Of a stretch of 64,000 nucleotides of DNA, positions 11,461-64,000 are shown piece by piece (the first letter of the stretch is position 1; each line of letters opens with the position of its first letter). Source of the DNA: an uncultured bacterium (GTDB lineage Bacteria > Muiribacteriota > Ozemobacteria > Ozemobacterales > Ozemobacteraceae); contig CAZADH010000003.1 of NCBI GenBank assembly GCA_964483805.1, positions 6,414 to 70,413 on the forward strand. Reading direction: 5' to 3'. The translations under genes were made by a program, and so were the position numbers. The notes under the pieces are model-generated. The model was not told the origin of the DNA and did not search any database. It saw only the letters and a list, made by a program, of their open reading frames with translations.

Positions 11461-11480
11461 GGTCGGTCTCCGGGTTGAGT

Positions 11481-12617: not shown

Positions 12618-12689
12618 CCGACCCTCCTCTCCTATGTTGAAGGTGCCAACGAAATTCGCACATGGCGATCCGTCGCGCAGAACAAGGGT

Positions 12690-12949: not shown

Positions 12950-12972
12950 TCATACTTTGGGCGTTGATCGGC

Positions 12973-17949: not shown

Positions 17950-18375
17950 ATGAGCTTGAATGCAGCCCCGGCCAAACACCGCACCCAGATCACCGGCAAC
18001 GTCGGCTTGTACTACGTCTGCTACAAGCTTTCACGGATGGGCTGGAACGTTCTGCCCACCTCAAGGAACGCCAGGGGCATCGATATCATTGCCTACAGCC
18101 AGGACGCCTCGCGTTACGTGGCGATCCAGGTAAAAGCGTTGAGGAAACGGAATCCGGTGCCGCTGGGCAAAGACCTCGACAAGATCATGGGCGACTTCTG
18201 GGTGATCGTGAACAACCTGGCCGGCGAACCTGCTGCGTTCATCCTGAGGCCCAAAGAGGTAAGGAAGCGTGTCCATGAAGGTGTGAAGAACGGAGTGAGG
18301 AGTTACTGGCTTCAGCCAAAGCAATATGATGTAGGTCAATTCCGTGAGGCCTGGCATAGGATTGGGCCGGGATAA
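17950..18375 (+). CDS. Small PD-(D/E)xK-type nuclease-fold protein (hypothetical)
   Basis: 141 aa; GIDIIAYS ... YVAIQVK resembles the D...(E/Q)xK motif of restriction-endonuclease-like folds; GAAGGAG RBS. Confidence 0.45.
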   Translation: MSLNAAPAKHRTQITGNVGLYYVCYKLSRMGWNVLPTSRNARGIDIIAYSQDASRYVAIQVKALRKRNPVPLGKDLDKIMGDFWVIVNNLAGEPAAFILRPKEVRKRVHEGVKNGVRSYWLQPKQYDVGQFREAWHRIGPG

Positions 18376-18406
18376 TTGTGACCGAGAACCAAGGCGGAGG
18401 ATCGAC

Positions 18407-19543: not shown

Positions 19544-19604
19544 ACGGCCATATGCAATCGCATATCGCCCACGTCACCGCCGGCATCGCCAGAAAGGCCG
19601 GATC

Positions 19605-31705: not shown

Positions 31706-31817
31706 GATGACGCCCTCCTCAATACGATGTACGGCGCGCAGAGTTGGTTTGATCATGATACCAGCGACCCGACAGCAAACACCAGGGCAATGCCAGGCCC
31801 GCCACTCAACCGGAAAT

Positions 31818-43200: not shown

Positions 43201-43293
43201 GCCCGAAACGGCTACCATCGTTCGCATGGTAACACGAGATGCATACACCGCCGCGGTTGGTGTAAGATTCCCGTGAACCTCTCCGCAAGCCAC
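40270..43293 (-). CDS. Membrane sensor with HAMP domain and C-terminal PP2C-type (SpoIIE/RsbU-like) phosphatase (paralog)
   Basis: 1007 aa; same architecture (GGDFLDY...GDAAGHGVAAAL...YSDCLVE). Confidence 0.8.
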   Translation of the reverse strand: MACGEVHGNLTPTAAVYASRVTMRTMVAVSGSGCGSVGTNPRTGQQSWVDFTSVILILVPLLLGAFILGVRARESEVRWRVAQERRAERLLRGLADYVDEESIWTRWLARQTRVILAAAQPAAVCRARMQAIRRVLGVASTWIVLDGDGNVLGQCGGMPAARQVLRRFHTDYRAMLAGDTEAGERQRGFVRGYLGANVPINRAIHDRLVLAATHADGRRCVFVSGPHRRGMVIVCLEFVDPPRPVFVRRMVDLINQWDRARHPGSPSCRVALLGRDFTADAGMCRGFGSEGSTVARLAAELDAQSLPHGWRDDAFWSHRTLTPGWSVLIRLSGGRPDHTAATLICILIVLLIAGCVVVWRQAGFDPIALVAPSIRAKLVLAFAFAAGLPIIMLAGVVFSYLSDRRQVLLDQLHEDATRQLVGIDRSFKDDQSAEWQELPEHLDPVRHSPTDDLASLTTWLGRLQRRFRWTGCELRDTSGRSVWRWVGRSSADVDLGVLRMVGDAATLVLRQLAPPEYLGILGRAMAVTGRNFVADFGGIFTKLALSVGSVGITEFGDIRFGFAMFPIHDARQRPWLMLCVFWSREWTEREYAWRRVPALGVAKADRRIYAIHDARPGWSVPRASRDRAIIARFAERIRSETRAARAAVGRFDETLILTGVRGRELREFSLVAVSSDRHVRLELAWLSWCFQTVALAVLACTITTGALLARRVLEPIGHLAYGVSCMQKRRFDVRIPVLAADELGMLARAFNTMVGDTQDLEVARVVQEGLFPDQPLVMSGWSVCGRCRSALRIGGDFLDYFSLPDGRLMIVIGDAAGHGVAAALMSAMAKVVVAHHADRRQEHVDASPDEVLTDLHRVIRQTMHGRRMMTCLVATFDPAIRSIELFLAGQNHPFIVSPKRARLLGVPSRPLGAGSRPVFQRVRADLAPDEYLVFYSDCLVETLDSDGIALDYERWGRELPALRRAGPGATEAAIRARHAVLSGDRPFDDDLSLIVLQPVTDGQVKPC

Positions 43294-46070: not shown

Positions 46071-47972
46071 GTGGAAACAGCACGAGATCTCTACGGGCAG
46101 GGCGTCGAGTTTCAGGCCAAAGGGCTGTTCGACCTCGCCATTCAATCGTATAACAAGGCGCTGAAGCTCGACAGCGAGAACCTCGACGTCATGATCAACC
46201 TGGGCGCCGCGTATTTGCAGAAGGGCTTGCCCGAGAAAGCCAGCCAGGTCCTGGGCCAGATTCTCGAGCGCAACCCCGACCACGCCATGGCGTTGTTCAA
46301 TCTTGGCAAGGTCCATCTGTATCGCGACGAAGCCGAGAAAGCCCTGGCCGTGTTCGAGCACGCCCAGGCGGTTCTGCCGCACGACCTCGATGTTCGCCGC
46401 AGCATCGGCCAATGCTTGATGCACCTCGATCGTACCGATGAAGCAATGGCCGTGTTCCAGAGTCTCCTCGAACCCCTGGCCGACGATCCGACCGTACCCC
46501 TCGATCTGGGGCGCCTGTTGTTGCGCCGCGACCACCCCGAACAAGCGCTGGGCATGCTCAAGCGTGCGGTGACCATCGCTCCCGATCATACCGAAGCATT
46601 GACCTTGCTGGCGCGGGCGCACCTGGCGATGAATGCCCCCGACAAGGCCTTGACTGCGCTCAAGCGGGCGCAGATGAGCGACCCGCGCAATCCGGAATTG
46701 CACACGATGATGGTCGATGTGCTGCTCGAAAAGAAAGACCTCGAAGCCGCTGTCACCCACCTCAAACATGCGGTGAGTGCCGACCCCGCCTCGCCAACGT
46801 TGAAACGCAAACTCGAAGAATTGACGCGCCGCCTGCCCGTGCTCAAAAAGCGCATCGGCACCTCGACGTTGGTCGAGAAGGCAAGCCCGTATGAAACCGA
46901 GGTCTACGACATCCTCGACGCGCTCTACGATGGTCGCACCCAGCTCGAGCACGCCATCGCCGCGATGAAGACGCTGCTCGAACGCGACGCCACCGACCTG
47001 TTCATCGCCGATGAACTGGCGAACCTGCTCTTTCAGGGCCGGCGGTACGACGAGGCAACCGAGCTGTATTCGCGCATCCACCTTGCCGATCCCGGGCAGG
47101 TCCGACATCGCATCAATCTGGCCAAATCCTTGGCGCTTCAGGGCGAGGTCACCGAAGCCAAAGCGTTCCTCACCGATTCCGCTCGTGACTTTCCGCGCTC
47201 GCTCGAATTGCCGCTGGCCCAGGTCGAGCTGTGTCTGCTCGAACGCGATTTCACCACGGCTCGAACGGTGCTCGAATCGACCTTGGCCAAACATCCGACC
47301 GAGGATCCGCACGCGTTGTTCCTGCTCGGGTACATCTCATTTCGGCAGGGCAACCTCGATTTCGCCCAGACGACGTTCAAAAAACTGCTCAAAATCTCGC
47401 CCGACGATGAAGAGGTCGTGTTGTGGTGGTCGCGTTTGATGATTCTGCGCGGGACGCCGCGTGAAGCGCTGCCCATGTGGGACCGTTTTCAAGACGGGAT
47501 TCAGAGCCTGGTCGAGATCATCACTCGCATCGAACTGCTGATGGCGGCCGGCGAGAACAGCGACGCGGTCAAGGCTCTGCTGCTGACGGTCAAGCACCAC
47601 GAACCGCGCTTTCTCGAGGATCACCTGCTGTTCGGCAAAGCGTATTTTTATTCCGGGGATTTTCACAGCGCCATGGAGAAGTTTCAGGGTGTGCTCGCCG
47701 AGGAACCGAACAATGCCGAGGCACTCACCTTCGCCGCCATCACCTGGTTGATCCGCAACAAGACCCCGCGGTTCTGGTCGATGTGGCAACGGGCCATCGA
47801 AGCCGACTCGCTGCATCCGGTACTGTCGGGCCTCGTTCTGCGGCGCTTGCTTACTTTCACCCAACTCGAACGCATGCTGGCAGAAACGGCCAAAATTCGC
47901 GATCTCATCGTGCAGACCGAGCTCGACAAGGCCCGATTGCAGCATTTCCTGACGCTGGCCCGCACCCCATAA
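46071..47972 (+). CDS. Tetratricopeptide (TPR) repeat protein
   Basis: 633 aa of consecutive TPR-like 34-aa helical repeats; GTG start. Confidence 0.7.
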   Translation: METARDLYGQGVEFQAKGLFDLAIQSYNKALKLDSENLDVMINLGAAYLQKGLPEKASQVLGQILERNPDHAMALFNLGKVHLYRDEAEKALAVFEHAQAVLPHDLDVRRSIGQCLMHLDRTDEAMAVFQSLLEPLADDPTVPLDLGRLLLRRDHPEQALGMLKRAVTIAPDHTEALTLLARAHLAMNAPDKALTALKRAQMSDPRNPELHTMMVDVLLEKKDLEAAVTHLKHAVSADPASPTLKRKLEELTRRLPVLKKRIGTSTLVEKASPYETEVYDILDALYDGRTQLEHAIAAMKTLLERDATDLFIADELANLLFQGRRYDEATELYSRIHLADPGQVRHRINLAKSLALQGEVTEAKAFLTDSARDFPRSLELPLAQVELCLLERDFTTARTVLESTLAKHPTEDPHALFLLGYISFRQGNLDFAQTTFKKLLKISPDDEEVVLWWSRLMILRGTPREALPMWDRFQDGIQSLVEIITRIELLMAAGENSDAVKALLLTVKHHEPRFLEDHLLFGKAYFYSGDFHSAMEKFQGVLAEEPNNAEALTFAAITWLIRNKTPRFWSMWQRAIEADSLHPVLSGLVLRRLLTFTQLERMLAETAKIRDLIVQTELDKARLQHFLTLARTP

Positions 47973-47976
47973 ACAC

Positions 47977-49426
47977 CATGACCGACAAGTCACCGACCCC
48001 GCTACCCCAGAAAACCCTCAACCGCAATGTGCCGCTGTTGCGCCGACGCTTTCGTCGCCTCGCCCGCGTGCGCGGCGCCCGTCTGACCCGCGATATCGGT
48101 GACTTCATCGACCTGCGCGGCTTTGCGATGCCGGTCCTGCTCACCGACCTTCATCGTCTTCCCGTCGAAGTGCAGCGGGTGGTGGCCGGGGTTCTCGAGG
48201 ATTACTTCTTTTTTCATCCTGACCGCGGCATTCGCCACTTTCCGCGTTTGCTTGCGTGCGCCACGCAACTCGACGCCTCGGTGCGCCGACACCTGATTCC
48301 GGCCATCGCCGACGTAGCGGCCCGGGGTGGGACCCGCCTGGCCGGCACCGAACGCCTCGGCGACGCAGCGCGCGTCCTGCTCGAAGCCGCCGACACCGAT
48401 CTGTTGCGCCAGGCCAAGGCCATCGAAGTCCTGGCCGGCACCGACGATCCGAGCCATCTTCCTGCAGTGTTGGCCGCTCTGGCGCGCGCCACCGATGCCA
48501 TCGATTCCTACGAGGGGTTTTCGCTCGCCGAAACCGCTTTGTTTGCCGTCAAGAGGCTTGGTGGCGAGGCCACCTTGTGCTTGCTCATCAATGCCGAGTC
48601 GTCCGCGGCCCGCCAACTGCTGCGGCTGCACTTCGGGGAACAGCGCACGGCCACCATCGTTGCGCCGGTGCTGGCTGCGTTGAGCCGGTTCGACGAGAAT
48701 CGCGCACAATTGTTGTTGAAATTCATCGAACTGGCTGAGTATCCGACGCCCTTCTTCGCGATGGTGCAAGAAGGCTTGAACCATTCCAGCAAATGGATCC
48801 GCCAGACGGCCTCGGCCACGGCGGCACGCCTGGGTAAATCCATCGAACTGACCCGATTGTTCGAGTTGCTCGAAGATCCGGCTCCCGAGGTCCGACTCAT
48901 GGCCGCATCGTCCCTCGGCCATATCGATCGTCCCGAGGTCGTGACCCGCCTGACCGCGATGGCGCAAGCGCCCCACGAAACCCGCGAAATCCGCCTGAAT
49001 GCGTTGTATTCACTGCACCAGTTGCGCAAAGAAGAAGCGCTGGCGGAACTGGCAGCGTCGCCCATTCCCGAGGTGGCACGCCCGGCACTCGGGTTGGCCT
49101 CCCTGCTGAAAGAGCGCAAACAGGGGTTGACCGAGTTGCTGGCCGCACTGCCGGATGCCGATGACCGGGCCGTGGCCGACCTGATCCACTACGTGGCCGA
49201 GATGGCGCGGGCCGACGATCTGCCCAGGCTGTTGGCGGCCAGCGATGGTCTCGCTCCCAGCGGTCGTCTTGTTTTCACCGAGTTCCTCGGCCGGTTTCTC
49301 CACACCCACGCCGGCCCTCTCCTCGACAAAACGTTGGCGGGCCTGCCATCAACACAACGGTCGGCACTCGAACCTCTCCTGCCCAGGCGAGGGCCATTGA
49401 CACCCGTGCCCGGACACGAAGTCTAG
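47977..49426 (+). CDS. HEAT/PBS-lyase-like repeat protein
   Basis: Repeated ...EVRLMAASSLGHI... / ...IRLNALYSL... HEAT-like units; start ATG 47977 (MTDKSPTPL) chosen over the long arginine-rich N-extension. Confidence 0.6.
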
Positions 49427-52400: not shown

Positions 52401-54545
52401 CATGAAATCCGCACGCCGATGAACTCGATCATCGGTCTGACCGAACTGATGTTCGATCTCTCACCCAACGCCGAGCAGCGGGAGTATCTGACCATGATCC
52501 GCTCGTCGGCGAGCACTCTGCTGACACTGATCAACGATATTCTCGACTTCGCCAAGATCGAGGCGCGCAAAATCACGCTCGAGAACATCGCCTTCGACAT
52601 GCGTGATGTCATCGAGGAGACCGTCCTGTCGTTGGCCATCCGCGCACATGACAAGGGTCTCGAACTGCTGTGCCAGATTGCTCCCGACATACCGACGCAG
52701 GTCATTGGCGACCCCCTGCGTTTCCGCCAGATCATTTTCAATCTGGTCGGCAACGCCATCAAATTCACGGAACGCGGCGAGGTCACCATCGAACTGATGC
52801 GCGACCAGACCCCCGGAACTCCCGGCGGCATGCATCTCGTGGTACGCGATACCGGCATCGGCATCCCCGAAGAACGAATTCAGCGCATATTTACGCCGTA
52901 TTCACAGGCCGACGCCTCGACCTCCCGCCAGTTCGGCGGCACCGGCCTGGGGTTGACCATTTCGCTGCGCTTGCTCGAACTGATGGGAGGCCGCATCTGG
53001 GTCGACAGTCGCGTGGGCGAGGGAAGCACGTTCCACGTGGTCGTGCCGCTCGTCCCGATCTGCGACAAACCGACCGCCATCAGTGCCACCGAATCCCTCA
53101 ACGGCATCACCGCCCTGGTCATCGACGATCACCGCACCACCCGCATGTGGTTGAACGACACCCTCCGGCACTGGGGCATGCAGGCAATGCAAACCGACTC
53201 GCTCGCAGGCGCGGTGCAGGCCATCAAGAGTGCAGTTACTCCGTTCCGCATCGTGATTCTCGACCAAGACCTGCCCCTGCCGACCGGCGAAACCGGGTCG
53301 TCGAGCCAGCTCATCCACGAGGCATTTTCGCCTCGAGATGCCGGACACATCATCACCCTGGGCACCCTTGGTCGCGTCGGTGGCGACCGCTCGCCCCGTG
53401 CCATCCGCCACACCCATCTGCTCAAACCCGTACGCCAGCGCGAGCTGCTACGCGCACTGCTGTCGGCGATCTCGGGTCGTGAGGTACCACTGCCGGTTTC
53501 CGAACACCCGACACCACCTGTGTCCAGTGCGATTACCCCGGCAACGGCCGGCCCGGCCCCGCACCACGGAAGCGGCCCTGTGGCCGCTGCGCCCTCGGTC
53601 TGGCCGACGGGCCGACAACCCGCGCCACCGCTGTCAGATCTCCGGTTGCTCGTGGTCGAAGACAACCCAGTCAACCAACGCCTGGCGAGCCGCATGCTGG
53701 CCCGCATGGGTCACCAGGTCGACATCGTCGACGATGGAGAGAAAGCACTGACGGCCATCCGCGCCGGAAACTACGACATCGTCCTGATGGACGTGCAGAT
53801 GCCGATCATGGATGGGCTCACGGCAACCCAGACCCTGCGCACCGAAGAACGCCAGACCGGTCGACACCAGCTCGTTGTCGCCATGACCGCCCACGCCATG
53901 AAGGGTGATCGCGAACGGTGCCTCGAAGCCGGCATGGACAGTTATCTGTCGAAACCGGTGAAAGCAGAGGAACTCAACGCCATCATCCAGGATCTCCTGC
54001 ATCGTCAAGCTGAGCGCGAACCTCCACCCGCCGACGCCGCCACCACTTTGGTCCAACCACCGGTAGCCAACGAAAGGGGCACACCACCGACGCCGCCTGC
54101 TGAACCGACCGCCGAGGCGGCGCCCGCAACCACCCCACCAGCAGCGGCCCCCCCGGTCGAGTCGGCGCCATCCCCCGAGATCGGTGCGACTGCCCAGCCC
54201 ATATTCGATGAGAAACACCTGCTCTCGCGCATCGACAACGACCGCGATCTGTTGGCAGAACTCATCGACATCTTCGTCGGCAGCACCCCCGAACTGCTCG
54301 ATCGCATCGAGCAGGCAGCGAACGCTGGCGACGCCGTCAAGGTCGAACACACCGCGCACACCGTGAAGGGCGCCGTCGGCAACTTCGCTGCCGAACCGGC
54401 CCGCCAGGTTGCCTTCACCATCGAGAAACTCGGCAGGGCCAAGGATCTGAGCACCGTTCTCGAGCACCTGAGCAACCTGCGCCAGTTGATCGACCAGACC
54501 GTTCGTGAGTTGCGGGCTCTGGTCGAGCGGATGCCGAAGGGATGA
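49491..54545 (+). CDS. Hybrid sensor histidine kinase / response regulator (membrane N-domain, periplasmic sensor, multiple PAS, HisKA, HATPase, two receiver domains, Hpt)
   Basis: 1684 aa; H-box (SHEIRTPMNSIIG), N/G boxes, receiver Asp motifs (LVVEDNPVN...DIVLMDVQMP), C-terminal Hpt (HTVKGAVGNF). Confidence 0.85.
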   Translation: MSTVVVSELILLHAVALLALGAWFHAIRHRIGNVVAWQIDGLGFGFLVTARALDLLSPLSDHLILDVARVGSLWCAFAIFADQLWRVLGSMIDVPATHRPRFHLVVGGVALSALIVAGFSGFELVLRTLLVPAVAILAARVIHLRAAIHCQDMNALRVFMTLLGPGAFLAHAFGTPQPMVFAPAWLASIWTPTMAEIALLIQLGTALLMLPTVGFYTQRLAAAVAPSPFGANRWRALALSAILLSVVLLAGLAVDQRVAGYAREELVKQGAVVIENVVRDLDTQIQAAEQAARLLAGTARVITLFSDPSPAALDAVHQALDHFNGVLHTSVCYLMTATGTVIATSNRFERNSFMGQNYAFRPYFKEALHGNTGIYLARGVTSQEVGLYAARPVVTSSNTVGIITVKAPLGRIGLPDDFGDRVALVSPDGVILTTNHAPWSFCSVWPLTAEHYDRVRHSRQFGDLSSRAVLLPVMPADRATVDIENRSWFVQRRATRIAGWQIMMWQRARIVADYQVFILLLTLLLAAMVVINLVGLSRSIDITDRIARSEQRFKTMMRGAPDAMLIFDAASHKITDVNAACERLLGHPHTQLLQMSYLELSAATRTEVEENTRATLAAGELFVPLHRFKRADGSTVSAELKATVLSLENHDSLLVFARDISEREKRETMLHRLSLAVEQSASMVLVTDTRGNIAYCNPAFSRITGYSISELMGRNTSLLKSGMTAPGVYLDLWMHLAAGQEWRGEFINRRKNGEFFWVTAAISPVRDTAGVVENFMAIMTDITERRRTEQALKEARDFLETVLDTALALIVGLDRNGRIMFGNRCFAELVGREREDVIGSHFIQTFIAGEAAPRIEKQMTTALAGQAGAIRFECPLIDAKNQRRLVEWNTGVIRDDRGQVQMVLATGIDITERKNAEGALQQAKEVSDRSNLQLLELNRRLEEATRQATELAASAERANSAKSDFLATMSHEIRTPMNSIIGLTELMFDLSPNAEQREYLTMIRSSASTLLTLINDILDFAKIEARKITLENIAFDMRDVIEETVLSLAIRAHDKGLELLCQIAPDIPTQVIGDPLRFRQIIFNLVGNAIKFTERGEVTIELMRDQTPGTPGGMHLVVRDTGIGIPEERIQRIFTPYSQADASTSRQFGGTGLGLTISLRLLELMGGRIWVDSRVGEGSTFHVVVPLVPICDKPTAISATESLNGITALVIDDHRTTRMWLNDTLRHWGMQAMQTDSLAGAVQAIKSAVTPFRIVILDQDLPLPTGETGSSSQLIHEAFSPRDAGHIITLGTLGRVGGDRSPRAIRHTHLLKPVRQRELLRALLSAISGREVPLPVSEHPTPPVSSAITPATAGPAPHHGSGPVAAAPSVWPTGRQPAPPLSDLRLLVVEDNPVNQRLASRMLARMGHQVDIVDDGEKALTAIRAGNYDIVLMDVQMPIMDGLTATQTLRTEERQTGRHQLVVAMTAHAMKGDRERCLEAGMDSYLSKPVKAEELNAIIQDLLHRQAEREPPPADAATTLVQPPVANERGTPPTPPAEPTAEAAPATTPPAAAPPVESAPSPEIGATAQPIFDEKHLLSRIDNDRDLLAELIDIFVGSTPELLDRIEQAANAGDAVKVEHTAHTVKGAVGNFAAEPARQVAFTIEKLGRAKDLSTVLEHLSNLRQLIDQTVRELRALVERMPKG

Positions 54546-55468
54546 GGGCAACGCGTCGCCCCAACGACCTGCGCATCGGCTTTCACGTCTCCATCAGCCC
54601 ATCACCACTGCGGGTTTTCGAGCGCATCAACGAACGCGGCATCGACACAGTGCAGATCTTCACCAAGAGTCCCCGCACCTGGGCAGCTCCCACCCTCGAT
54701 TTGCCGCTGCTTGCCGAGTTCCGCCGCCGGTGGCAGGAAGCCGGCCACCATCCGCTCGTTGCCCACGCGAGCTATCTGCTCAACCTGAGCGCCGAAAACG
54801 CAACGGTGCGCCAGCAATCGATCGCGGCTCTTCGTCAGGAAATCGGCCGGGCCCATGCCTTCGGCGCAGAATACATTGTATTACACGTCGGCCATCATTC
54901 GTGCCCGGCAAAGAGAGTTTCGCGAATGGTCGACGGCCTCAATGAGATGTGGCGGGGGTTGCGCCCCACACTCACCGCCGACCCTGGTCTCGATCCCGAG
55001 CATCCACCGATGCTGTTGCTCGAGAACACGGCGCGCCGGCAGGAGACTGCCGACGACGATCTGCGAGAACTGGCGGCGGTTCGCGCAGGTCTCGATTTCC
55101 CCAGTGGCGTCTGTCTCGACACCTGTCATGCCTTCCAATCGGGTCACGACCTGAGCACGGCAACCGGCCGCCGTTCCTGGGTAACGGCCATCACGCGCCA
55201 CCTGGGCACCGGGGTCGTTCGCGTCATCCACCTCAACGACAGCCTGCGGCCATGTGGCACCGGTGTCGATCGGCATGCGGGCATCGGCGCGGGAGAGATC
55301 GGCGCGTCGGCACTGGGTACACTGCTTCTCGACCCGCTTATGCGCGGCATGCCGATCATCATGGAAACTCCCGGTGCCGGTGAAAAAGATCCCTCGACCG
55401 ATCTGAAAAACCTCGCTGCATTGACTCGCGCACTCACAGCCGCCCGCCGGGCCAAAGCTGTAAAATGA
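54542..55468 (+). CDS. nfo: Deoxyribonuclease IV / endonuclease IV (AP endonuclease family 2)
   Basis: HASYLLNL ... LHVGHH ... DTCHAFQSGHD ... IHLNDS motifs of Nfo; ATGA overlap with the kinase stop. Confidence 0.8.
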   Translation: MRATRRPNDLRIGFHVSISPSPLRVFERINERGIDTVQIFTKSPRTWAAPTLDLPLLAEFRRRWQEAGHHPLVAHASYLLNLSAENATVRQQSIAALRQEIGRAHAFGAEYIVLHVGHHSCPAKRVSRMVDGLNEMWRGLRPTLTADPGLDPEHPPMLLLENTARRQETADDDLRELAAVRAGLDFPSGVCLDTCHAFQSGHDLSTATGRRSWVTAITRHLGTGVVRVIHLNDSLRPCGTGVDRHAGIGAGEIGASALGTLLLDPLMRGMPIIMETPGAGEKDPSTDLKNLAALTRALTAARRAKAVK

Positions 55469-55668: not shown

Positions 55669-56217
55669 ATGCGCCAGAGGTGGAGACCCCGCGTGCAACG
55701 TCACGGCACAACATTGCTCGAGATCATGTTCGCGCTCGTCATTCTGGCGACCGCGATGATTCCGATCGCCTCGGTGATGGGCTACGGCGCCAAGACCACG
55801 GTCAAAGATTTCCGCACCATCGAGGCGATTCAGCTCCTGCAGAAAACTGCCAACATGTTGCTGCAAGAGCCCTACCGAAACCTGCCGTTGAATCAGGCGA
55901 CGTACGCATCGGCGTATGCATTGAATCCGAGCATTCCGCTGGGCACTGCGATCAAGGGCCGCGAGACGACCTACGCCATTGAGTTTACCTGCGTCGAGGT
56001 GTCGCCGGTACGGTTCTCCGCATACCTGATCAACGTGAGCGGCGCCACATTCAACGAGGCGAGTCCGCAGCCGGCCGACTTCACCGGGCCCGTTTCCCAG
56101 AGCTTCGATCACTGCGTTAAGCGTCTTCAGGTGAGGGTTACGTGGGTCGAACCCAATGGCACACCACGCCAGATCGACGCCATCACTTTCCGGGCCGATC
56201 TGAATCGGCGAGGCTGA
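55669..56217 (+). CDS. Prepilin-type N-terminal cleavage/methylation domain protein (type II secretion/T4P pseudopilin-like)
   Basis: Short basic leader then G|TTLLEIMFALVILATAMIP class III signal sequence. Confidence 0.7.
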   Translation: MRQRWRPRVQRHGTTLLEIMFALVILATAMIPIASVMGYGAKTTVKDFRTIEAIQLLQKTANMLLQEPYRNLPLNQATYASAYALNPSIPLGTAIKGRETTYAIEFTCVEVSPVRFSAYLINVSGATFNEASPQPADFTGPVSQSFDHCVKRLQVRVTWVEPNGTPRQIDAITFRADLNRRG

Positions 56218-56741
56218 TGATGACCGAACGATCGAGACAAGCCAGGCAGACTCGCCGCGGCATGGCCATCGTTGTCGTTTTGACCTTGTCGATGGCGCTG
56301 TTGATCATGAGTTCCGCCTACATCTCGACCCTCCACAACCAGGCACCCGTCAACCCCGACCTCCTCAGCAGCATACAGGCAGAGCTCATGGCCCAAGGCG
56401 CAACCCAGATCGCCATGCTCAAGTTCAAAGAGATGCCCAGTTGTTTGTATTACGCCGCCATTGCCTCGAAGAGCGGCAACGTCACCCCCTACAATCTGTT
56501 TCGAGGATCAGGTGCGGTCAGCGGCGACAACAAAGACGGCGACTGGTTGATGAACGCATCCTTCACCTGGCCGATCCATGCCACCTGCAACACAAACTTT
56601 CAGATGCTGTCTTCGCAGATGTACAAAGAGATGAACATCCGGATCATCACGGTGGTGAACTACACGGCCCTCGACGGCCGCACACTATCGAAGTCGTTCG
56701 AGCAAACCATCAATGGTGTGCGCCAGAAGGTGGGTCCTTGA
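56217..56741 (+). CDS. Pseudopilin-like membrane protein (GspK-like minor pseudopilin candidate)
   Basis: Basic N-terminus then hydrophobic helix (RRGMAIVVVLTLSMALLIMSSAYI); translationally coupled (ATGA) to flanking pseudopilin genes. Confidence 0.5.
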   Translation: MMTERSRQARQTRRGMAIVVVLTLSMALLIMSSAYISTLHNQAPVNPDLLSSIQAELMAQGATQIAMLKFKEMPSCLYYAAIASKSGNVTPYNLFRGSGAVSGDNKDGDWLMNASFTWPIHATCNTNFQMLSSQMYKEMNIRIITVVNYTALDGRTLSKSFEQTINGVRQKVGP

Positions 56742-57529
56742 TGAACGCTCACGCCTCCTGGGCTCGTCGAAGCGCCTTCACCCTCACCGAGGTGCTCATT
56801 TCGTCATTGGTGCTCTCCCTGTTCCTCGGTGGCGCATTCTTGCTCTTCCGCACCGGCGCAAACTCTTTTTCCGGAGGCAGTTGGCGAGCCATCGAGCAGA
56901 AGAAGATCCAGTTGTTCCTCGAGGAACTCGTGCGCGACCTCGAACAGGCATCGGGGCGCATTATCAAGATCCAAGCCAACGGCAGCAATGTCGGATGGAA
57001 CGGTGTGCCCGGGGGCACGCCAACGCCGATCTACATCAACAACCTCGTGTATTCGGCCAACACGGCAGCCAAGAAGTATTCCCTGGATCAATCCAACTGG
57101 GTGTGCCTGATGGTCTTCAACGTGACGCGTCCGTGGAAAGAGAACAACGCGACCTTCGGCACCCCCCTCGAGCGGGGAAAATGGACGGGCGTCTCGCTGT
57201 GGGCGCGCAATCGCGAGATTCGCTACATTCGCAGCGGCAGTCGCGCCACTTGGGACGCGACGCCGCAGGCATTTCCGGCCGGCATCACCACCCCGGCGCC
57301 GGCGAACGTCGTCGCCGGTGGGGATTTCGAACCTGGAACGGAGAACATCCATGACCGCATCGTCGACGCCACATTCGACGACCTGTCGATTCTCGGCTCC
57401 GGAACACCCGTCGTCTCGCTCGAGATCCGCACCACGACAACACGTCGCGTTCACGGTACTGCCAATACGAGTTTCGAGGAGGCGGCCGTCGCCAAGCTCG
57501 CTTCCGGCACCTCGGTGACGACGTTCTGA
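56741..57529 (+). CDS. Prepilin-type N-terminal cleavage/methylation domain protein (pseudopilin)
   Basis: AFTLTEVLISSLVLSLFLGGAF N-terminal pilin-like helix. Confidence 0.65.
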   Translation: MNAHASWARRSAFTLTEVLISSLVLSLFLGGAFLLFRTGANSFSGGSWRAIEQKKIQLFLEELVRDLEQASGRIIKIQANGSNVGWNGVPGGTPTPIYINNLVYSANTAAKKYSLDQSNWVCLMVFNVTRPWKENNATFGTPLERGKWTGVSLWARNREIRYIRSGSRATWDATPQAFPAGITTPAPANVVAGGDFEPGTENIHDRIVDATFDDLSILGSGTPVVSLEIRTTTTRRVHGTANTSFEEAAVAKLASGTSVTTF

Positions 57530-58410
57530 TGAACCCCACGATTCCGGAGGACCAACAAATGCGCATCTGCCTGGAACCGCCCGCCCAGAAGGCACCCAGC
57601 GCCCCGGTGCCGCCGCGACAACTGCTCCGATGCGGGGTTGTCGCGTGTTTATTGCTATTGTATTGCTCATTCGACTGGGTTACCGCCCAGCCCCGTAGCA
57701 CCGGGAGCGACAGCAGTTACGGTGTCGTCGATGTTCGTGTCCTGCTGGCCTGCCATCCACTGATGGCCAAGTTCGACGCCCACTCGCGACGATTTCGCGA
57801 GACGGCTTCGAGCGCCCTGGGAGATCCCGATGAGACCCGGCAGCATCTCGAAAAGAAGCGCAACGCGCTGCAGAGCGAACTCGCCCAACTCGACGACCAA
57901 CTCAAACGCATTCTCGCGTCCGGTGGCGATCGCGCCCAGAGCGAGTACCACGCCTTCTGGCAGAAACGTTCACAGTTGAAAGAGGAGTACGATCTGCTCG
58001 AAAGTGCGCGCGAAGCGGCATCGCTCCAAGGCAATTACGTCAACGGTCTGCCGCCCCCCGACACGCTGATGCCCATTTTCATGCGCATCAGCCACAGCAT
58101 TCGCTCGGTATTGCGCAATTTGCAGACCCGGTACCGCTTGGTCGCCATTCTCGACGCCTCGGCTCTGCAACCGGAAACACCGCCACCCGGCACGCTTGCA
58201 CTGCCGGCCCTGCCAAGCAATCTCCACTGGAATCTGTGGCGGGGGGAACCCCTCGGCGACGGCGACATTGACGCGTGGATGAGCGGTTGTCGTGCCCATT
58301 TCGCCCAACTCGCCCCGGTCCGTTTCGCCCGGCCGGACAAGGCCGGCGCACGGGATCTCACTCTCGAAGCGCTGCGCGAATTGCGGGCGACGCCGGCAAA
58401 ACCACGATGA
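57529..58410 (+). CDS. Hypothetical secreted protein (paralog A; coiled-coil, possibly Skp/OmpH-like)
   Basis: Signal sequence; shares the LACHPLMAKFD motif and helical architecture with the next gene. Confidence 0.5.
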   Translation: MNPTIPEDQQMRICLEPPAQKAPSAPVPPRQLLRCGVVACLLLLYCSFDWVTAQPRSTGSDSSYGVVDVRVLLACHPLMAKFDAHSRRFRETASSALGDPDETRQHLEKKRNALQSELAQLDDQLKRILASGGDRAQSEYHAFWQKRSQLKEEYDLLESAREAASLQGNYVNGLPPPDTLMPIFMRISHSIRSVLRNLQTRYRLVAILDASALQPETPPPGTLALPALPSNLHWNLWRGEPLGDGDIDAWMSGCRAHFAQLAPVRFARPDKAGARDLTLEALRELRATPAKPR

Positions 58411-59441
58411 ACAGACAATCCGCAACCAGGAGGTATGGTTTCATGCGCGTTCCGCACCACCGTATGGCGTTGCCGATGGTGATCGCGATTATGTTGCTGT
58501 CGTATTGCCCATGGCCGTGCTTTGCCCAGGGCGCCGCCGCAGGTTTGCCGGTGATGTATTCGATCGACTACAAAATGACACTTGCCCTGCATCCGCTCAT
58601 GGCCAACTACGACCTGGTGCTCGGTCGGCACCTGCGCGGCGAGATCGCCTTCCACGATACGAAGGTCATGAACGAGGTCAACGCCCGCATCAACCAATTG
58701 AACGCTGCCGCCCAGCCTCGCATCAAGAGCCTGCAGAAGAAGTTCGATCTGCTCGCGATCGAGCGCAGCAAGGTCGGCGAGCGCATGCAGGCCATGGTCG
58801 GTCAGGCCAATGCCGAGCGCGGCACCTTCGATCAGGTACAAACCAACAAGGCTCAGAAAGGCAAGATTGCCGACCTCGATCGTCAGATGGTCGAGATTCA
58901 GGCCCAGATGCAGGCGGCACAGGACGAAGTGCTCGATCCCATCTACCTGACCCGGGCCCAGTCGAAAGAGAGAATCAACCAGGCGTTGACCGAGATCGAC
59001 CACCTGCTCGCGAACATCTCGGCGCAGCGCGGTGGAGCCATCATCATCGATCGCGACTTCGTGCGCCCGACCCCGCTACAGAGCCAACAGATCAACACGG
59101 CGGCGACGGTGGGTGCCGATCCGCTGAGCATCAACCTCTTTCAGAAGGTGCTCACCGGTGATCTGGTTGCCAGGATCCCGGAGGTGTATCAGAAGGATCC
59201 CGAGTTGCAGCGCTATGCCGCGCAGATGCGGGCTCAAATGGCGACCGGCTTCGATCGCAATGTGGCAACCCAAATGTCGAAGGCCCCCCTGTATGCGGCA
59301 ATTCCTGCGACCGGACGCCTGTTCCTGGTCGGCGGCGAGCAGGCCGATCTCACCCGACAGGTTATCACCGAAATATATCGTCAACACAATGTGCGCACAG
59401 AAGTGGCGCAGCGGATTCTCGCCGCGATCAAGATCGACTGA
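58407..59441 (+). CDS. Hypothetical secreted protein (paralog B)
   Basis: Signal sequence (MALPMVIAIMLLSY...); LALHPLMANYD motif; Q-rich coiled-coil; ATGA overlap with paralog A. Confidence 0.5.
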   Translation: MNRQSATRRYGFMRVPHHRMALPMVIAIMLLSYCPWPCFAQGAAAGLPVMYSIDYKMTLALHPLMANYDLVLGRHLRGEIAFHDTKVMNEVNARINQLNAAAQPRIKSLQKKFDLLAIERSKVGERMQAMVGQANAERGTFDQVQTNKAQKGKIADLDRQMVEIQAQMQAAQDEVLDPIYLTRAQSKERINQALTEIDHLLANISAQRGGAIIIDRDFVRPTPLQSQQINTAATVGADPLSINLFQKVLTGDLVARIPEVYQKDPELQRYAAQMRAQMATGFDRNVATQMSKAPLYAAIPATGRLFLVGGEQADLTRQVITEIYRQHNVRTEVAQRILAAIKID

Positions 59442-59496
59442 AGCGTGCGGCTGATGGGGCCGCGAGCCGATGGGGCAATCGGACACGGGGAGGTAA

Positions 59497-62400
59497 ATGC
59501 GTATGTTGCACACACCAGTCAGCGACAAATCCTGGGCATGGCCATTGGTGGTGGTCATCCTCCTGGCGACCGTCCTACCGGCATCGGCCGAACTCGCCAA
59601 GGAGTATCAGCGCAACGGTGAGTGCTATCTTCTGGTCGGGCACAGCAATCCCACGTTCCGCGGGGTCTACCGGCTCAACAACCCCGCCGGCGAACCCGAC
59701 GGCAATCCCCTCGGCCGCCTGTTCGACCCACAGGATTCCTATGGCATTTCGGTCAACCTCAACCGTCAGGTTTACACCTTCAGCGTCACGGTGGCCCCGA
59801 CCTACACGTTCGACGCGAGCGTCACGTTGCCAAGGTTGTTGAAGGCGTACGGTGGTGTCGGTCTCTACGGTGCCCACTGCGACACCCGCAAGTCCTATTA
59901 CGTCAGCACCGACGGCATCACATACAATCAGTCGAACCAGCCTGTGTATACTACTGCGGGCCCAATGGGCAATGAGAACGGCGTCAGTTGGGGCAGTTCC
60001 AATCTTTCGTGGGGCTGGAGTGGCATCGTCGTGCCGACGGCCCAGTATCCCTGGGGCTGGTACGTCCAGAAAACCGCTGTGTACTGCGACAGCAACTGCA
60101 TCTACACGAACGGCTATAGCGACGCATACTGGTGCTACTTCCTGAGCACCGATGCCAGCGGCTATGGCAATGTGCCAAATGGCGGTTGGTGGCAGAGTCG
60201 CGATCCCGACCCGGCCGGCCGACCCGGCAATCTCTTCTACTGGGATCGCGCTTTTCGTAAGTACACCAAGTACGATCTGTTGCGTTGGCAGAAGTCGCTC
60301 GGCGTTCAAGGCGGTGGTGCCCCAGTCTATGCGCAATACATGGGCCCGGCCGACTCGATCTACGACGAGATCGTCAAGCGGTCGCGCATCTCGGCGTGCA
60401 TGAATTGCGTGTGCGTGAGCGGCAGCAACGACTCGTCCTTCCCGACGACGCCGAAATACGTATGGTTGGCCTTGTCGCCGTTCGGTCGTACCTATTTGTA
60501 TTCACGCACCGAGACCAGCACTGCAGACGGCCAGGTGCGCCTCAACGGCAGTCCGATGTCGTATCCCGCAACCAACATCATTGGCTATCTCAATGATCTG
60601 TCGACGAAGTGGATCGGGGTATCGAGTCAGAACCTGACCTCGGATTACGTCTATCTGCTGGGCAAGCGCATCGTCAAGGAATGGCTCGCCGCCTACAGCA
60701 TCACCGTGCCGGCCGACTTCGATGTTCATGCGGTCGCTGTCTCTGACCAGTGGTGGCTCGAGGGTGGCATCATCTTTGCCTACGACAAGAACAACGGCTA
60801 CGTCTACCAGTTCATCCGCAACGACAAAGGCGGCGCCAACACGTGCAAGTCGAAACCCACCTCGCGGTATCTGGGCACCAACATCGATGACGTGCGGGCC
60901 GACGGTTTCGGCAACTGTTTCTATTCGAAAACCACGGTCACCCCGGCCACCACCGGCATCACCTGGCCCCAGGCAACGTCGTTCACCCTCGCCGGAACAT
61001 CGGGGGGGCGCAGCTACGGCTACGTCTGGTACAACCAGAAGGTCGACAAAACGGTGTTCAAGAGCGAGCTGGGTTCGACCATCAGCACCGAGGTTGGCAA
61101 GGTCTTTATCGGCAACAACGTATTCCGGCGCTTGTTCTCCGTTCCTTCGGCCCGCTGGGGCCTGCTCACCCTGGCCCTTCTACCCACCGAGGAAACCACG
61201 GCCGGGTGGCAGTGGAACAGCGCTTTGGCGCAAACCACCTCGGTCACGGAACCAGGGCGCGTCCAGCTTGGCGTCATCAACGTGGCCACCCCGCCCGTCG
61301 TCGAGAAACCCAACGGGCGCACCGGGGCGATCGACATCATTGCCAAAACGCCCGGCATGCCGATGTACCCGAATTGGACCACGCCGGTCTTGCAGGGTCT
61401 CTACGAATTCGGCGTCGAAAACGCCCCCGAGTGGAACGGCAAGATCAACATCGTCACCCCCGGCAAGAGCAAGTGGGCCGGCGACACCAACGGCAACGGG
61501 TTCGAAGGCGGGTTCGTCAGTTCGGTCAAGAACGACTCCGCCAGCATCGACAACTCCCCCGACGTTTTGTATACCTGGCGTATTTACAAAATCCAAGACA
61601 GCTATCTCAACCCACTGACCCCGAACGAGTTGGTCAAGGAAGTGGTCGACACGACTGTTCCTTCGATCAAATGCTACCTGCGTTCAGGCGTATTCCAGAT
61701 CGAATGCTCGACAAAATTCAAGTGGTATAACTACGACGTATTGACATTCGGCTCGACGGTCGCGTCTCTGGCCGAGTGTTTGCGGCCGACCGGCGGAGGT
61801 TATGAGATCGCCTCGGCGGCGACTCTGCCCGATCCGTCCAACATCATCAACGTTGCCCATTTTCCGGGCATGCATGCGGTGCCGGCCAAAACCGCGGTCT
61901 ACATGGTTACGGTCAATCCGGGGCCACCACCGCCAACCGGCACACTCGTCGATATCCAGAATCACACCGCCGCGGTGCCACCGCCGCCAGCCGTGCCGGT
62001 GCCGCCGACCACGGGATGGAAGAACCCGTCGGTGCTCGGTTCGATGAAGTACCATGTGGCCACGCAGGGCCAGACCCTGTGGTGGCGCATCGACCCCGCG
62101 CTGCTCAACAATCTGTGGAACCTGCCGACGATCACCGACTCGAACCGGGTGCCGGGTACCTTGAAGTGGCAGAGTGACGCCCAGTTCGACTGGGGGTTCG
62201 CGGTGATCATGCCCAACGGCACCGAGTATGCGCCGTTGCAGGTGTCGCGCTACACCAACGAAACGACCAAGAACACCGCAATCACGTTCGGTCTCGATTT
62301 CCCGACCGACCCGCAGGTCGGTTCGCTCACCTGCACGGCCTATCGTGACTGGGAGTACGAACGCAACGTCTACGACATCGACGGCAACTACCTGGGCACC

Positions 62401-63750
62401 GAGAAGGTCACGGGCCATGTGCAGTACGACGGTCGCGTCAATGTTCTGGTCATCGACACGCAACCGCCAATCGTTCGAGCGGTCAACGGGGTGACGACCC
62501 TGCCGCGTAATCCGTTGTTTTACGGCACCACCTATGGGCTCGTCGATGCGGCTGTTCCGGGATACGCCAATCCGGCAAGTTTCTCGATTCTCGTCCGCGA
62601 CAACAACCCGTTTGCCAACATGAACATCACGAGTCCGATTCCGCAGAGCCGACACAATCGCGCCACCCGCCTCAGCGCCACGTTCTACTTCGAGCGCGGC
62701 GCTGGGAAGGGGTTGTTCCCGACCACGGCAAGCCCGACCAAACTTGCGTATTACACCAGTCCCGGTGCGGGTCCGTTGTCACCGACGACGGTTCCCGACA
62801 TCACCACGGCCTGGGTCACGCAACCCGGTCGCGCCTTGATGCGCAAGCCGTTGCCCTACACGCCCAGCGCCACCTACAGCGAAATCCTGTATGCACTCAA
62901 TATTGCCAACTGGAACGACATGCAGGACAATACCACCGATCCAACGGGGCTCGACTACTACCGGCGTTGGCCGACCAACTTCGCCAACAACTCGCCCATT
63001 GCGGTGTACAATGCAGACGGCGCGGTCGGCGCTGCCCATCCTGGTTATGCTCTGTTGTTCGTGGCCAGCGACAGTTCGGGCAACTTGCGAACGGTCATGG
63101 ACATGTCCGGCAAACCCGTTCCGGATCCCACTCACCTCGGCAACGTCTGGATCAAGGACACGTTGCCACCAGTCGCCTGGGCCAGCATTCGCGACTATGC
63201 CAACAGTTTCCCGCCCGAGACGATTCTCAATAACCTGCCCGCCTATACGTCCGGCGTCATCCGTTACGATCTCTTGCCGACAGCAACGCAGTGGACCCCC
63301 AACTCGAGCGGCAATTTCTACAATGGCGCGCTGGGCAACGTGACCGGCATCCCCTGGTCGCTGGCCTCGCCGCTACCGGTAGCGGTCGGCACGCATCCGC
63401 CCGAGATCCAGGAAGGTATGGAGGTGTTCTTGAGCCTCTTCACGGGCGACAACATCGCCACCGCCACGACGCCACGGGCCAGCATGTCGATTCTCGGACC
63501 GATGGCTGGTTCGCTGTTCTACGAGCGTTTGGCTTCGACGATCAGCGCCAACACCACCAGCAGTTACCCGAATATTCGCGTGCTCTTGCAGCACCCGGGC
63601 GTCTATAACTGCACCCTGACGGTGTCCGATACCGCCATCGATTTCCCCGGCACGGCTGCCCCCAACTCGCGCGAGGTTCGTTTCGGCATTATCGTTTCAC
63701 CTACGCGCATGGACATTCGCGTGCTCGATCGCAAGCAAAACAAATACTGA
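59497..63750 (+). CDS. Giant secreted protein (1417 aa), hypothetical adhesin-like
   Basis: Signal peptide; Y/W/G/N/T-rich beta-type composition; no catalytic motifs recognised. Confidence 0.6.
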   Translation: MRMLHTPVSDKSWAWPLVVVILLATVLPASAELAKEYQRNGECYLLVGHSNPTFRGVYRLNNPAGEPDGNPLGRLFDPQDSYGISVNLNRQVYTFSVTVAPTYTFDASVTLPRLLKAYGGVGLYGAHCDTRKSYYVSTDGITYNQSNQPVYTTAGPMGNENGVSWGSSNLSWGWSGIVVPTAQYPWGWYVQKTAVYCDSNCIYTNGYSDAYWCYFLSTDASGYGNVPNGGWWQSRDPDPAGRPGNLFYWDRAFRKYTKYDLLRWQKSLGVQGGGAPVYAQYMGPADSIYDEIVKRSRISACMNCVCVSGSNDSSFPTTPKYVWLALSPFGRTYLYSRTETSTADGQVRLNGSPMSYPATNIIGYLNDLSTKWIGVSSQNLTSDYVYLLGKRIVKEWLAAYSITVPADFDVHAVAVSDQWWLEGGIIFAYDKNNGYVYQFIRNDKGGANTCKSKPTSRYLGTNIDDVRADGFGNCFYSKTTVTPATTGITWPQATSFTLAGTSGGRSYGYVWYNQKVDKTVFKSELGSTISTEVGKVFIGNNVFRRLFSVPSARWGLLTLALLPTEETTAGWQWNSALAQTTSVTEPGRVQLGVINVATPPVVEKPNGRTGAIDIIAKTPGMPMYPNWTTPVLQGLYEFGVENAPEWNGKINIVTPGKSKWAGDTNGNGFEGGFVSSVKNDSASIDNSPDVLYTWRIYKIQDSYLNPLTPNELVKEVVDTTVPSIKCYLRSGVFQIECSTKFKWYNYDVLTFGSTVASLAECLRPTGGGYEIASAATLPDPSNIINVAHFPGMHAVPAKTAVYMVTVNPGPPPPTGTLVDIQNHTAAVPPPPAVPVPPTTGWKNPSVLGSMKYHVATQGQTLWWRIDPALLNNLWNLPTITDSNRVPGTLKWQSDAQFDWGFAVIMPNGTEYAPLQVSRYTNETTKNTAITFGLDFPTDPQVGSLTCTAYRDWEYERNVYDIDGNYLGTEKVTGHVQYDGRVNVLVIDTQPPIVRAVNGVTTLPRNPLFYGTTYGLVDAAVPGYANPASFSILVRDNNPFANMNITSPIPQSRHNRATRLSATFYFERGAGKGLFPTTASPTKLAYYTSPGAGPLSPTTVPDITTAWVTQPGRALMRKPLPYTPSATYSEILYALNIANWNDMQDNTTDPTGLDYYRRWPTNFANNSPIAVYNADGAVGAAHPGYALLFVASDSSGNLRTVMDMSGKPVPDPTHLGNVWIKDTLPPVAWASIRDYANSFPPETILNNLPAYTSGVIRYDLLPTATQWTPNSSGNFYNGALGNVTGIPWSLASPLPVAVGTHPPEIQEGMEVFLSLFTGDNIATATTPRASMSILGPMAGSLFYERLASTISANTTSSYPNIRVLLQHPGVYNCTLTVSDTAIDFPGTAAPNSREVRFGIIVSPTRMDIRVLDRKQNKY

Positions 63751-63762
63751 CGCCCGGCTCAT

Positions 63763-64000
63763 GGGCATGATCGACCACCGCCACTGCGCCCGCACCTTCT
63801 GTGCTGTCCTGGTGGCGGTAGTTTGTTTCTGCACGCCGGCGGCGACCCATGCGTGTTCCGAGTACCAACACGTATGGCAGACGGTCGGCGAGAACTCAAC
63901 CGCGGAGCTCACCCCACAGGTTCTCACCGTCTTTCTCGAACTCGTGGCCCGTCATCTTCCCGACCCGCCAGCATCGTGGGGACTGACCATCGTAGGTCTA
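63763..64000 (+). CDS. Partial ORF (5' end) for a signal-peptide-bearing protein, continues beyond the window
   Basis: MGMIDHRHCARTFCAVLVAVVCFCTPAATHA... open to the window end. Confidence 0.3.

Follow-up and report, generated by a model that had tools for sequence, protein, structure and literature searches.

A conserved gene module of uncultured Riflebacteria links GspI/J/K-like pseudopilins with distant Skp/OmpH relatives and a very large exported protein

The minor-pilin operon of Pseudomonas aeruginosa (fimU-pilVWXY1Y2E) and the minor-pilin/PilY1 sets of Myxococcus xanthus are stand-alone operons with a V/W/X-type core, the equivalent of the I/J/K-type pseudopilins, in which one pilin lacks the glutamate at position 5 (Glu5). 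These genes are joined by one for a very large Sec-exported non-pilin protein and then by one for a small protein, PilY2. According to the accepted model, the Glu5-less terminal subunit caps the V/W/X core complex and PilY1 serves as the plug (bioRxiv 10.64898/2026.02.12.705559). Alternative paralogous sets exist, and Myxococcus has several of them together with a cluster-encoded periplasmic PilY1 helper, TfcP (PMC8833165). Here we describe a gene module of the same general plan. It occupies positions 55669-64000 on the plus strand of a 64,000-nucleotide stretch of contig CAZADH010000003.1 (positions 6,414 to 70,413; assembly GCA_964483805.1) from an uncultured bacterium of the Ozemobacteraceae; this whole stretch is called the window below. 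The module has the V/W/X-type trio with one pilin-like protein lacking Glu5, the very large Sec-exported non-pilin and the small protein thereafter, it stands alone and it likewise occurs in paralogous versions. Minor-pilin clusters that include a large protein associated with the tip are thus a known kind of system, while the components of this one are new, among them two paralogous proteins related to the Skp/OmpH chaperones, and we found no description of such a pseudopilin/chaperone/giant module in the literature.

Three other described systems resemble parts of the module. The tip of the type II secretion system (T2SS) consists of GspI, GspJ and GspK, and a K-type subunit without Glu5 is common to this tip and to the trio. 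In the Extended Translocon of the Flavobacterium type IX secretion system (T9SS), a SkpA trimer serves as a fixed part of the structure and is required to export SprB, a giant adhesin, and the skpA operon also encodes another Skp paralog; outer-membrane protein biogenesis had been the sole established field of Skp, and this recent finding gives the family roles beyond it (PMC10994853). The service of SkpA (PDB 8GL8) in giant-adhesin export, with a paralog in the operon, parallels the paralog pair and giant of the module. The Verru_Chthon cassette (TIGR02596, TIGR02598 and TIGR02599, with TIGR02600 as protein A) is, like the trio, a lineage-specific set of prepilin-like genes. It also holds a very large protein, protein A. 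We know of no Skp-like genes in this cassette, and our search of the literature for Skp-family genes in pilus or T2SS clusters returned no report.

All six genes of the initial annotation were present, and with a seventh they follow one another almost without intergenic space. The trio comprises PP1 (g1, 55669-56217, 182 amino acids [aa]), a minor pseudopilin like GspI, PilV and ComGE; PP2 (g2, 56217-56741, 174 aa), which is GspK/PilX-like; and PP3 (g3, 56741-57529, 262 aa), a minor pseudopilin like GspJ, PilW and ComGF. Next come the paralogs A (g4, 57529-58410, 293 aa) and B (g5, 58407-59441, 344 aa), termed HP.M proteins below, and the gene of the giant (g6, 59497-63750), predicted to be a Sec-exported all-beta protein of 1417 aa. 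The genes do overlap at 56217 and 56741 as first described, but by one base (TGATG) instead of the ATGA reported there; the g3/g4 junction at 57529 is of the same one-base type and only g4 and g5 meet in an ATGA (58407-58410). In the public annotation of an identical contig of 7 kb, g4 begins at 57559 and g5 at 58443, which shortens the proteins to 283 and 332 aa. The overlapping starts are no more plausible than these, because GGAGG or AGGAGG lies 8-9 nucleotides ahead of both ATG codons; for g5, with AGGAGG in front, the 332-aa version is the likelier one. The unit had been thought to end with the giant; its six genes stand, but g7, which starts at 63761 and is cut by the window end at 64000, extends it. 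GC content of the module equals that of its surroundings. Promoter-like and terminator-like sites were counted at chance level in a scan of the sequence, with no terminator-like site above expectation; therefore nothing speaks against a single operon.

PP1 and PP3 begin with class III signal peptides, that is, a short basic leader, Gly or Ala at position -1, a hydrophobic helix and Glu at +5. The predicted cleavage site of PP1 follows RHG and precedes TTLLEIMFALVILA, giving TTLLE after cleavage, and that of PP3 follows RSA and precedes FTLTEVLISSLVLS, giving FTLTE; Glu5 is present in both. PP2 shows the same layout (RRG, then MAIVVVLTLS) without Glu5. These features are conserved: Leu and Glu5 were invariant in an alignment of seven PP1 members (A5), as was Glu5 among seven PP3 orthologs (A7), which also share a C-terminus ending in TF. 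The seven PP2 orthologs (A6) have an invariant Gly-x-Ala and none of them has Glu at +5. With its pilin-like leader and a helix lacking Glu5, PP2 has the hallmarks by which GspK/PilX-type proteins are recognized. No further prepilin-type N-terminus was detected in the whole window.

Comparison with hidden Markov models (HMMs) pointed in the same direction. PP1 matched N_methyl (E = 0.003), ComGE (E = 0.0037) and gspI (E = 0.023), PP2 the N-terminal region of T2SS_GspK (E = 0.0047), and PP3 ComGF (E = 9e-4). For N_methyl (PF07963), the scores were 17.5 bits for PP1 and 21.5 bits for PP3, with a cutoff of 21.2. When the 21 trio members were scanned, 13 of them matched N_methyl; the other models hit were IV_pilin_GFxxxE (11 members), ComGE (10), gspI and PilV (6 each), ComGF and Verru_Chthon cassette protein C (5 each), and gspJ and GspK (4 each). 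The best E-values in the trio families were 4e-4 for gspI, 2.4e-4 for gspJ and 2.2e-3 for GspK. Besides protein C (best E = 7.5e-5), the Verru_Chthon proteins B and D were matched by one member each, all sub-threshold. Curated cutoffs of the GspI, GspJ and GspK equivalogs (TIGR01707, TIGR01711 and NF037980) were not reached by the trio: PP1 of the window scored 15.2 bits with gspI (cutoff 44.35) and PP2 16.5 bits with GspK (cutoff 130). Against PDB sequences, the three family profiles matched nothing beyond the N-terminal helix. These matches, weak but convergent, support the assignment of the trio as pseudopilins, in line with the initial annotation, and as being of the I/J/K type. The trio thus follows the logic of a core tip or priming complex, GspI-J-K being equivalent to PilV-W-X, whose Glu5-less subunit caps the filament.

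Both HP.M proteins have signal peptides. The motif of g4 is YGVVDVRVLLACHPLMAKFD and its C-terminal sequence AGARDLT, and g5 has MYSIDYKMTLALHPLMANYD and GGEQADLT. BLASTP aligned g4 with g5 no further than the signal peptide and the motif, within the first 58 aa (38% identity, E = 3e-6). The profiles of the two families, however, align end to end (A2 vs A1, hhalign 98.1%, E = 8e-14, about 221 columns), and hence the paralogy postulated before extends over the full length. The HPLMA-type motif noted there is shared by a much wider family. Its core H, P and M, together with one C-terminal G, never vary among 58 diverse homologs, and in the C-terminal GG.D(L/I)T both D and T are almost invariant. 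A word-indexed search returned only six relatives of g5, one NCBI/Logan protein being 100% identical; exact look-ups of g5 and nfo led to nothing but short Logan contigs with the same sequence as the window. In an exhaustive HMMER search of 1.84 billion representative sequences, the family comprised at least 208 clusters at E <= 1e-3, 73 of them at E <= 1e-10, and the N-terminal signature (V/I)D-x7-HP-x-M-x2-(F/Y)D was found in almost all of the 147 matches listed. Neither Pfam nor NCBIfam nor the records of the relatives give this family a name, and it had rightly been called unannotated.

Three independent lines connect the HP.M family with Skp/OmpH, a kinship that the initial annotation had offered as a guess. 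First, PF03938 (OmpH) was by far the most frequent Pfam match, with sub-threshold hits in 36 of the 58 members (best E = 4.5e-6); among the closest 16 members it matched four. Second, the profile of the 58 members (A8) aligned with that of 20 canonical OmpH proteins of Riflebacteria carrying PF03938 (A12; hhalign 93.2%, E = 2.8e-7, 71 columns); this comparison gained significance only with the 20-sequence OmpH profile and had none with a single OmpH sequence. Third, a Foldseek search of 350,542 PDB chains with an AlphaFold2 (AF2) model of g5 returned SkpA of the T9SS (8gl8_G) and Skp of Escherichia coli (1u2m_C and 1sg2_C) as the top three matches, though at weak E-values. Set beside the jellyfish fold of Skp/OmpH, a small beta core with a long alpha-helical hairpin, this low-confidence model begins with a short strand, continues with a hairpin whose two helices span some 50 and 36 residues, and ends with another helix and a last strand (strands 38-42, 62-64 and 199-203; helices 73-124 and 129-164). 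HP.M proteins and Skp/OmpH share the signal peptide, an N-terminal strand with (F/Y)G.VD, and C-terminal strands with V.D and GG.D(L/I)T..V, and the model suggests a long helical hairpin for HP.M proteins as well. The HP.M family profiles, compared with PDB sequences, matched only generic coiled coils. As g4 and g5 themselves did not match PF03938 even at E <= 1, and thus miss its gathering threshold, we treat the two as belonging to a sister branch that has diverged from OmpH and do not count them as members of the Pfam family. On sequence grounds, the HP.M proteins are putative periplasmic chaperones.

Several features separate them from OmpH: their invariant HP.M..(F/Y)D motif is missing from OmpH, they are larger (260-390 aa, as against 187-207 aa for canonical OmpH of Riflebacteria), and an insertion of about 100 aa precedes the last strand. 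This insertion and the other extensions, together with SkpA of the T9SS being the best Foldseek match of g5, leave room for the idea that HP.M proteins are structural parts of a periplasmic docking platform which would position the giant or a secretin, and not holdases. The fixed SkpA trimer of Flavobacterium, which acts in SprB export with a paralog encoded in its operon (PMC10994853), would be the model for such a platform. We rate this as quite improbable for the module, in which no translocon partner was identified, the inserted region was modelled with low confidence, and orthology is lacking among the TPR proteins that some loci have nearby. These TPR proteins belong to the large TPR/HEAT-repeat proteins and the signalling proteins encoded upstream of the module in four loci (window 46071-49426; L002 1230-7080; L007 2-1357; L009 1-50). 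Those of the window, L002, L007 and L009 were considered as a further module component comparable to SprE, a TPR protein of the T9SS, and this was rejected as they share only generic TPR similarity.

The giant has a cleavable signal peptide, with the site between LPASA and ELAKEY. Its enrichment in Tyr, Trp, Gly and Asn was evident as described (Y 5.7%, W 2.9%, N 6.5%), but the description left out Thr and Pro, in which the protein is rich as well. An exact look-up of the sequence gave no match, and no similarity was detected in Pfam, in NCBIfam including Verru_Chthon protein A, or among PDB sequences. The 32 homologs found are all annotated as hypothetical, none carries a Pfam domain, and those with a taxon name are all from Riflebacteria; a scan of the 33 family members likewise gave no meaningful Pfam match. 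The best-conserved part of the protein is the N-terminal stretch of about 760 aa. Based on the 33-sequence alignment, residues 32-1200 were modelled as an all-beta structure (AF2, mean pLDDT 84.3). Best Foldseek matches of this model were the ectodomains of integrins alphaV and alphaX (E = 1e-9 to 1e-6), followed by other multi-Ig/FN3 ectodomains and complement C3/C5. In the integrin alpha ectodomain, Ig-like thigh and calf domains come after a propeller head, and the predicted fold is accordingly consistent with a beta-propeller head on a stalk of Ig-like sandwiches. The sequence identity to integrins is 8-10% and TM-scores are about 0.1, the latter because domain orientations differ, and the match does not imply a shared origin. 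Most homologs conserve a D-x-N-x-N-G loop (residues 663-668, with GGF after it) that is reminiscent of the Ca-binding loops of integrin alpha, as a resemblance only. The C-terminal 100 aa or so, which lie outside the model and contain GVYNCTLTVSD, look like a PKD/Ig-like domain by eye. Judged from the model, the architecture is that of an adhesin or surface protein and not of a membrane barrel. An outer-membrane barrel had been considered because of the aromatic C-terminal residue; this was discarded in view of the propeller/Ig-like model and because the homologs of L016-L018 do not conserve the aromatic end. The earlier suggestion of an S-layer-type substrate found no specific support.

To follow the genes across genomes, HMMs of all six families were run on every open reading frame (ORF) of every locus fetched. 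Loci L002, L005 and L007 were reached through homologs of g5, L009, L010 and L011 through homologs of the giant, L012-L015 through a distant HP.M subgroup of five sequences in a scan of GTDB genomes (the three with names are Ozemobacteraceae or Riflebacteria), and L016-L018 through very distant HP.M representatives. Together with the window these are 14 independent loci (window, L002, L005, L007 and L009-L018). The closest named relatives of g5 and the giant are from 'Candidatus Ozemobacteraceae', 'Candidatus Rifleibacteriota' and 'Candidatus Riflebacteria', which assigns the window to an uncultured member of Riflebacteria. A homolog of the giant adjoins an HP.M gene in all 14 loci. Of the 13 loci whose flanks are long enough, 11 also have the PP1/PP2/PP3 trio adjoining this pair; in these the giant is, like PilY1/PilC, a large non-pilin encoded beside core minor pilins. 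The genes are arranged in at least three orders. The first, PP1-PP2-PP3-HPM(-HPM)-giant-small protein, is that of the window, L002, L005, L009, L010 and L018, the last with a single HP.M gene. In the second, two or three HP.M genes are followed by the giant and then by PP3-PP1-PP2 (L012-L014); L015 starts alike and is cut after the giant. L007 has the order HPM_A-HPM_B-giant-PP1-PP2-PP3, and L011 PP3-PP1-PP2-HPM-giant with an extra HP.M gene plus a degenerate HP.M-like one on the opposite strand.

The genes flanking these loci are unrelated (kinase/nfo, response regulator/HEAT-CheR, RND pump, rsfS, tig-clpPX or lipopolysaccharide heptosyltransferase). A chance juxtaposition of unrelated lineage-specific genes is therefore highly improbable, being effectively refuted by the synteny: the linkage holds in 14 loci with differing flanks and gene orders up to phylum-level divergence, the genes are tightly packed or overlapping, and terminator-like sites are no more numerous than expected. 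The initial annotation would have been contradicted by paralogs scattered apart from pseudopilins and large secreted proteins; instead, the HP.M probes always met a giant homolog and usually the trio. In one further contig (L006, GCA_002631825.1), PP2 and PP3 form one fused ORF (6730-7989) and the giant is split in two (9675-14056). These anomalies are likely assembly frameshifts, because the near-identical Logan contig of L005 has the genes intact.

Two distant loci retain only part of the module. L016 (Candidatus Wallbacteria, GCA_028687545.1) has two degenerate HP.M genes and a remote homolog of the giant of 1734 aa (HMM E = 5.8e-16). In L017, a 664-aa tandem fusion of two HP.M domains (10001-11995) adjoins a giant homolog of 1612 aa (E = 1e-132) with an acidic, Asp/Ser-rich tail. 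This fusion suggests, as a Rosetta-stone hint, that the HP.M paralogs act together. Because L016 and L017 keep the pair and have no pseudopilin within 10 kb, the link between chaperone and giant seems to be the primary one: the pairing is the invariant core, and the association with pseudopilins is the rule in Riflebacteria. The same two loci might suggest that the HP.M proteins and the giant are nothing but a chaperone-client pair, in which the giant would be associated with the surface or outer membrane and exported by another route, whereas the pseudopilins would form a separate system that is merely co-regulated in Riflebacteria. Such a pair would accord with the established roles of Skp, confined to outer-membrane protein biogenesis (PMC10994853), and with the aromatic C-terminal residue of the giant in close homologs. 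Yet in 11 of 13 loci the trio has remained a neighbour although the gene order was rearranged at least three times, which is hard to explain other than by a shared function; the giant is modelled with propeller and Ig-like domains and a PKD-like C-terminus and not as a membrane beta-barrel; and a canonical OmpH is also kept in these genomes, beside bamA. We therefore consider a mere chaperone-client pair unlikely.

The canonical OmpH was seen in L010, which carries bamA-ompH-lpxD-lpxC/fabZ-lpxA downstream of the module, the bamA-ompH-lpxD cluster (17558-19938) at a distance of 3 kb. Riflebacteria are diderms, and this cluster shows that canonical OmpH has been retained alongside the HP.M paralogs in the lineage. 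L010 is also the sole locus with a machinery gene in the vicinity, namely one for a PilQ/GspD-type secretin (142-2016), 4 kb upstream of the module; the other 13 of the 14 loci have none, and a locus of the second gene order that was scanned is flanked by housekeeping genes without machinery. The module of the window is preceded by nfo (54542-55468) and a gene for a hybrid histidine kinase of 1684 aa. Because machinery genes are lacking in the window and in the flanks of that locus, the module is regarded as standing alone, as minor-pilin/PilY1 operons do.

The secretin gene of L010 and the best HMM matches of the trio to GspI, GspK and GspJ could also indicate a T2SS-type device. The trio would then tip a short pseudopilus and recognise the folded giant as its cargo, which the pseudopilus would expel through a secretin, the giant being released or held at the surface and the Skp-like proteins keeping it soluble until then. 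The giant, with its Sec signal peptide and a modelled fold of several soluble beta domains, would suit as a substrate of this kind. T2SS pseudopilin genes, however, normally lie inside gsp operons together with the machinery. Here no gsp machinery is adjacent, 13 of the 14 loci have no machinery gene nearby, and neither GspG nor GspH is encoded in the module. Furthermore, PP2 with 174 aa is much shorter than the 307 positions of the GspK model, and the trio scores far below the curated cutoffs. A T2SS-type function appears doubtful.

We favour, still tentatively but as a serious possibility, a self-contained accessory module serving a type IV filament machine (a type IV pilus or a T2SS-like device) whose genes lie in another part of the genome, with the giant chaperoned by the HP.M proteins and displayed as a tip adhesin. 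This proposal rests on comparative data and structure prediction, from which the function is inferred. In this scheme, PP1, PP2 and PP3 would be processed by a prepilin peptidase and assemble in the inner membrane into the core complex of the tip or of priming, with PP2 as its presumptive cap because it lacks Glu5. Sec would export the giant into the periplasm. There the two HP.M paralogs, probably combined in a mixed oligomer that has long helical arms, would hold it and pass it on to the pseudopilin tip complex. Extension of the filament through a secretin would then bring the integrin-like giant to the cell surface, where its role as a tip adhesin would parallel that of PilY1 with PilVWX. 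A more specific version, in which a branch of the Skp/OmpH family has been repurposed as dedicated, probably hetero-oligomeric loaders that place an adhesin of about 150 kDa onto a tip capped by a Glu5-less subunit, is conceivable and put forward with greater reserve. The dedicated pseudopilin, chaperone and cargo module envisaged in the initial annotation is borne out in its testable parts, cargo and tip adhesin being indistinguishable here.

A number of observations weigh against the tip-adhesin proposal. All pseudopilin assignments lie under the curated cutoffs, with the exception of the N_methyl match of PP3. When the 30 further ORFs of the window were scanned with Pfam, neither a secretin nor an ATPase, a platform protein or a prepilin peptidase came up, and the window has neither a GspH/FimU-type adaptor nor a major pilin. 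L016 and L017 lack pseudopilins within the 10 kb mentioned. The Foldseek matches of g5 to Skp are weak (E = 0.045-0.17) and were obtained with a model of mean pLDDT 60. Finally, the giant has no sequence homology to PilY1/PilC, as judged from Pfam, NCBIfam, PDB sequences and the 33 family members, and PilY1 is absent from the top 50 Foldseek matches of its model.

The module also differs from PilY1 clusters in three respects. A fourth pilin of the FimU/GspH type is lacking, and the helpers belong to the Skp/OmpH family. The best-conserved region of the giant, the inferred site of the propeller, is N-terminal. In PilY1, the propeller is C-terminal.

If the HP.M proteins indeed act as loaders of this kind for a pseudopilin tip, the module would provide the first role of the Skp family in type IV filament biogenesis and, after SkpA of the T9SS, the second independent recruitment of Skp to giant-adhesin export. 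It would also extend the recent finding that the roles of Skp reach beyond outer-membrane protein biogenesis (PMC10994853). Tip modules of the minor-pilin/PilY1 type have a central part in the priming of pili, in adhesion and in the sensing of surfaces, and it is poorly understood how a very large non-pilin stays competent in the periplasm and is loaded onto the tip; a module with Skp-like chaperones of its own would offer a testable handle on this process. Apart from the generic N_methyl match of PP3, none of the module families reaches the threshold of any Pfam or NCBIfam model. Seven unannotated families are defined by this work, with the HP.M branch (at least 208 clusters), the giant, the three pseudopilin families and the small Cys-start protein, and dozens of 'hypothetical' genes in the uncultured phyla Riflebacteria and Wallbacteria could now be annotated.

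The small protein is encoded by g7, in whose product the mature end begins AC/SEYQHVW. The family pattern is AC(S/T)(E/D)Y.H(L/V)W, with Cys first and a non-canonical lipobox. Homologs of 245-321 aa, also secreted, are encoded directly after the giant in L002 (15604-16569), L005 (15365-16150) and L009 (14179-14916). The family has no Pfam match, and g7 occupies the position that PilY2 has in pil operons.

Some other genes near the module or in the window deserve mention. FGE-sulfatase-domain proteins are encoded directly beside the module in L005 (6382-7212, minus strand) and L017 (17167-19785, minus strand), and the window contains a gene for a Laminin_G_3 and FGE-sulfatase protein 46 kb away from the module (7982-9181, minus strand). 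This recurrence may be a coincidence in a lineage rich in such paralogs. Just downstream of the module in L009 lies a gene for a CHASE2-SpoIIE protein, and the window has two tandem, overlapping genes for paralogs of about 1000 aa with HAMP and SpoIIE (PP2C phosphatase) domains (37352-40276 and 40270-43293, both minus strand). A 501-aa ORF at 30251-31756 (minus strand) matched protein-arginine deiminase (PF03068, E = 2.9e-24, covering positions 179-388 of the 395 in the profile), a eukaryote-type family that is uncommon in bacteria as far as we know. A 539-aa ORF at 14807-16426 (minus strand) comprises only a PHP domain and part of the NTPase domain of DNA polymerase III alpha, and could be a truncated or split dnaE or reflect an assembly break; genes for an Mrr-type restriction endonuclease (16631-17680) and a DUF559 protein (19509-20486) are located nearby.

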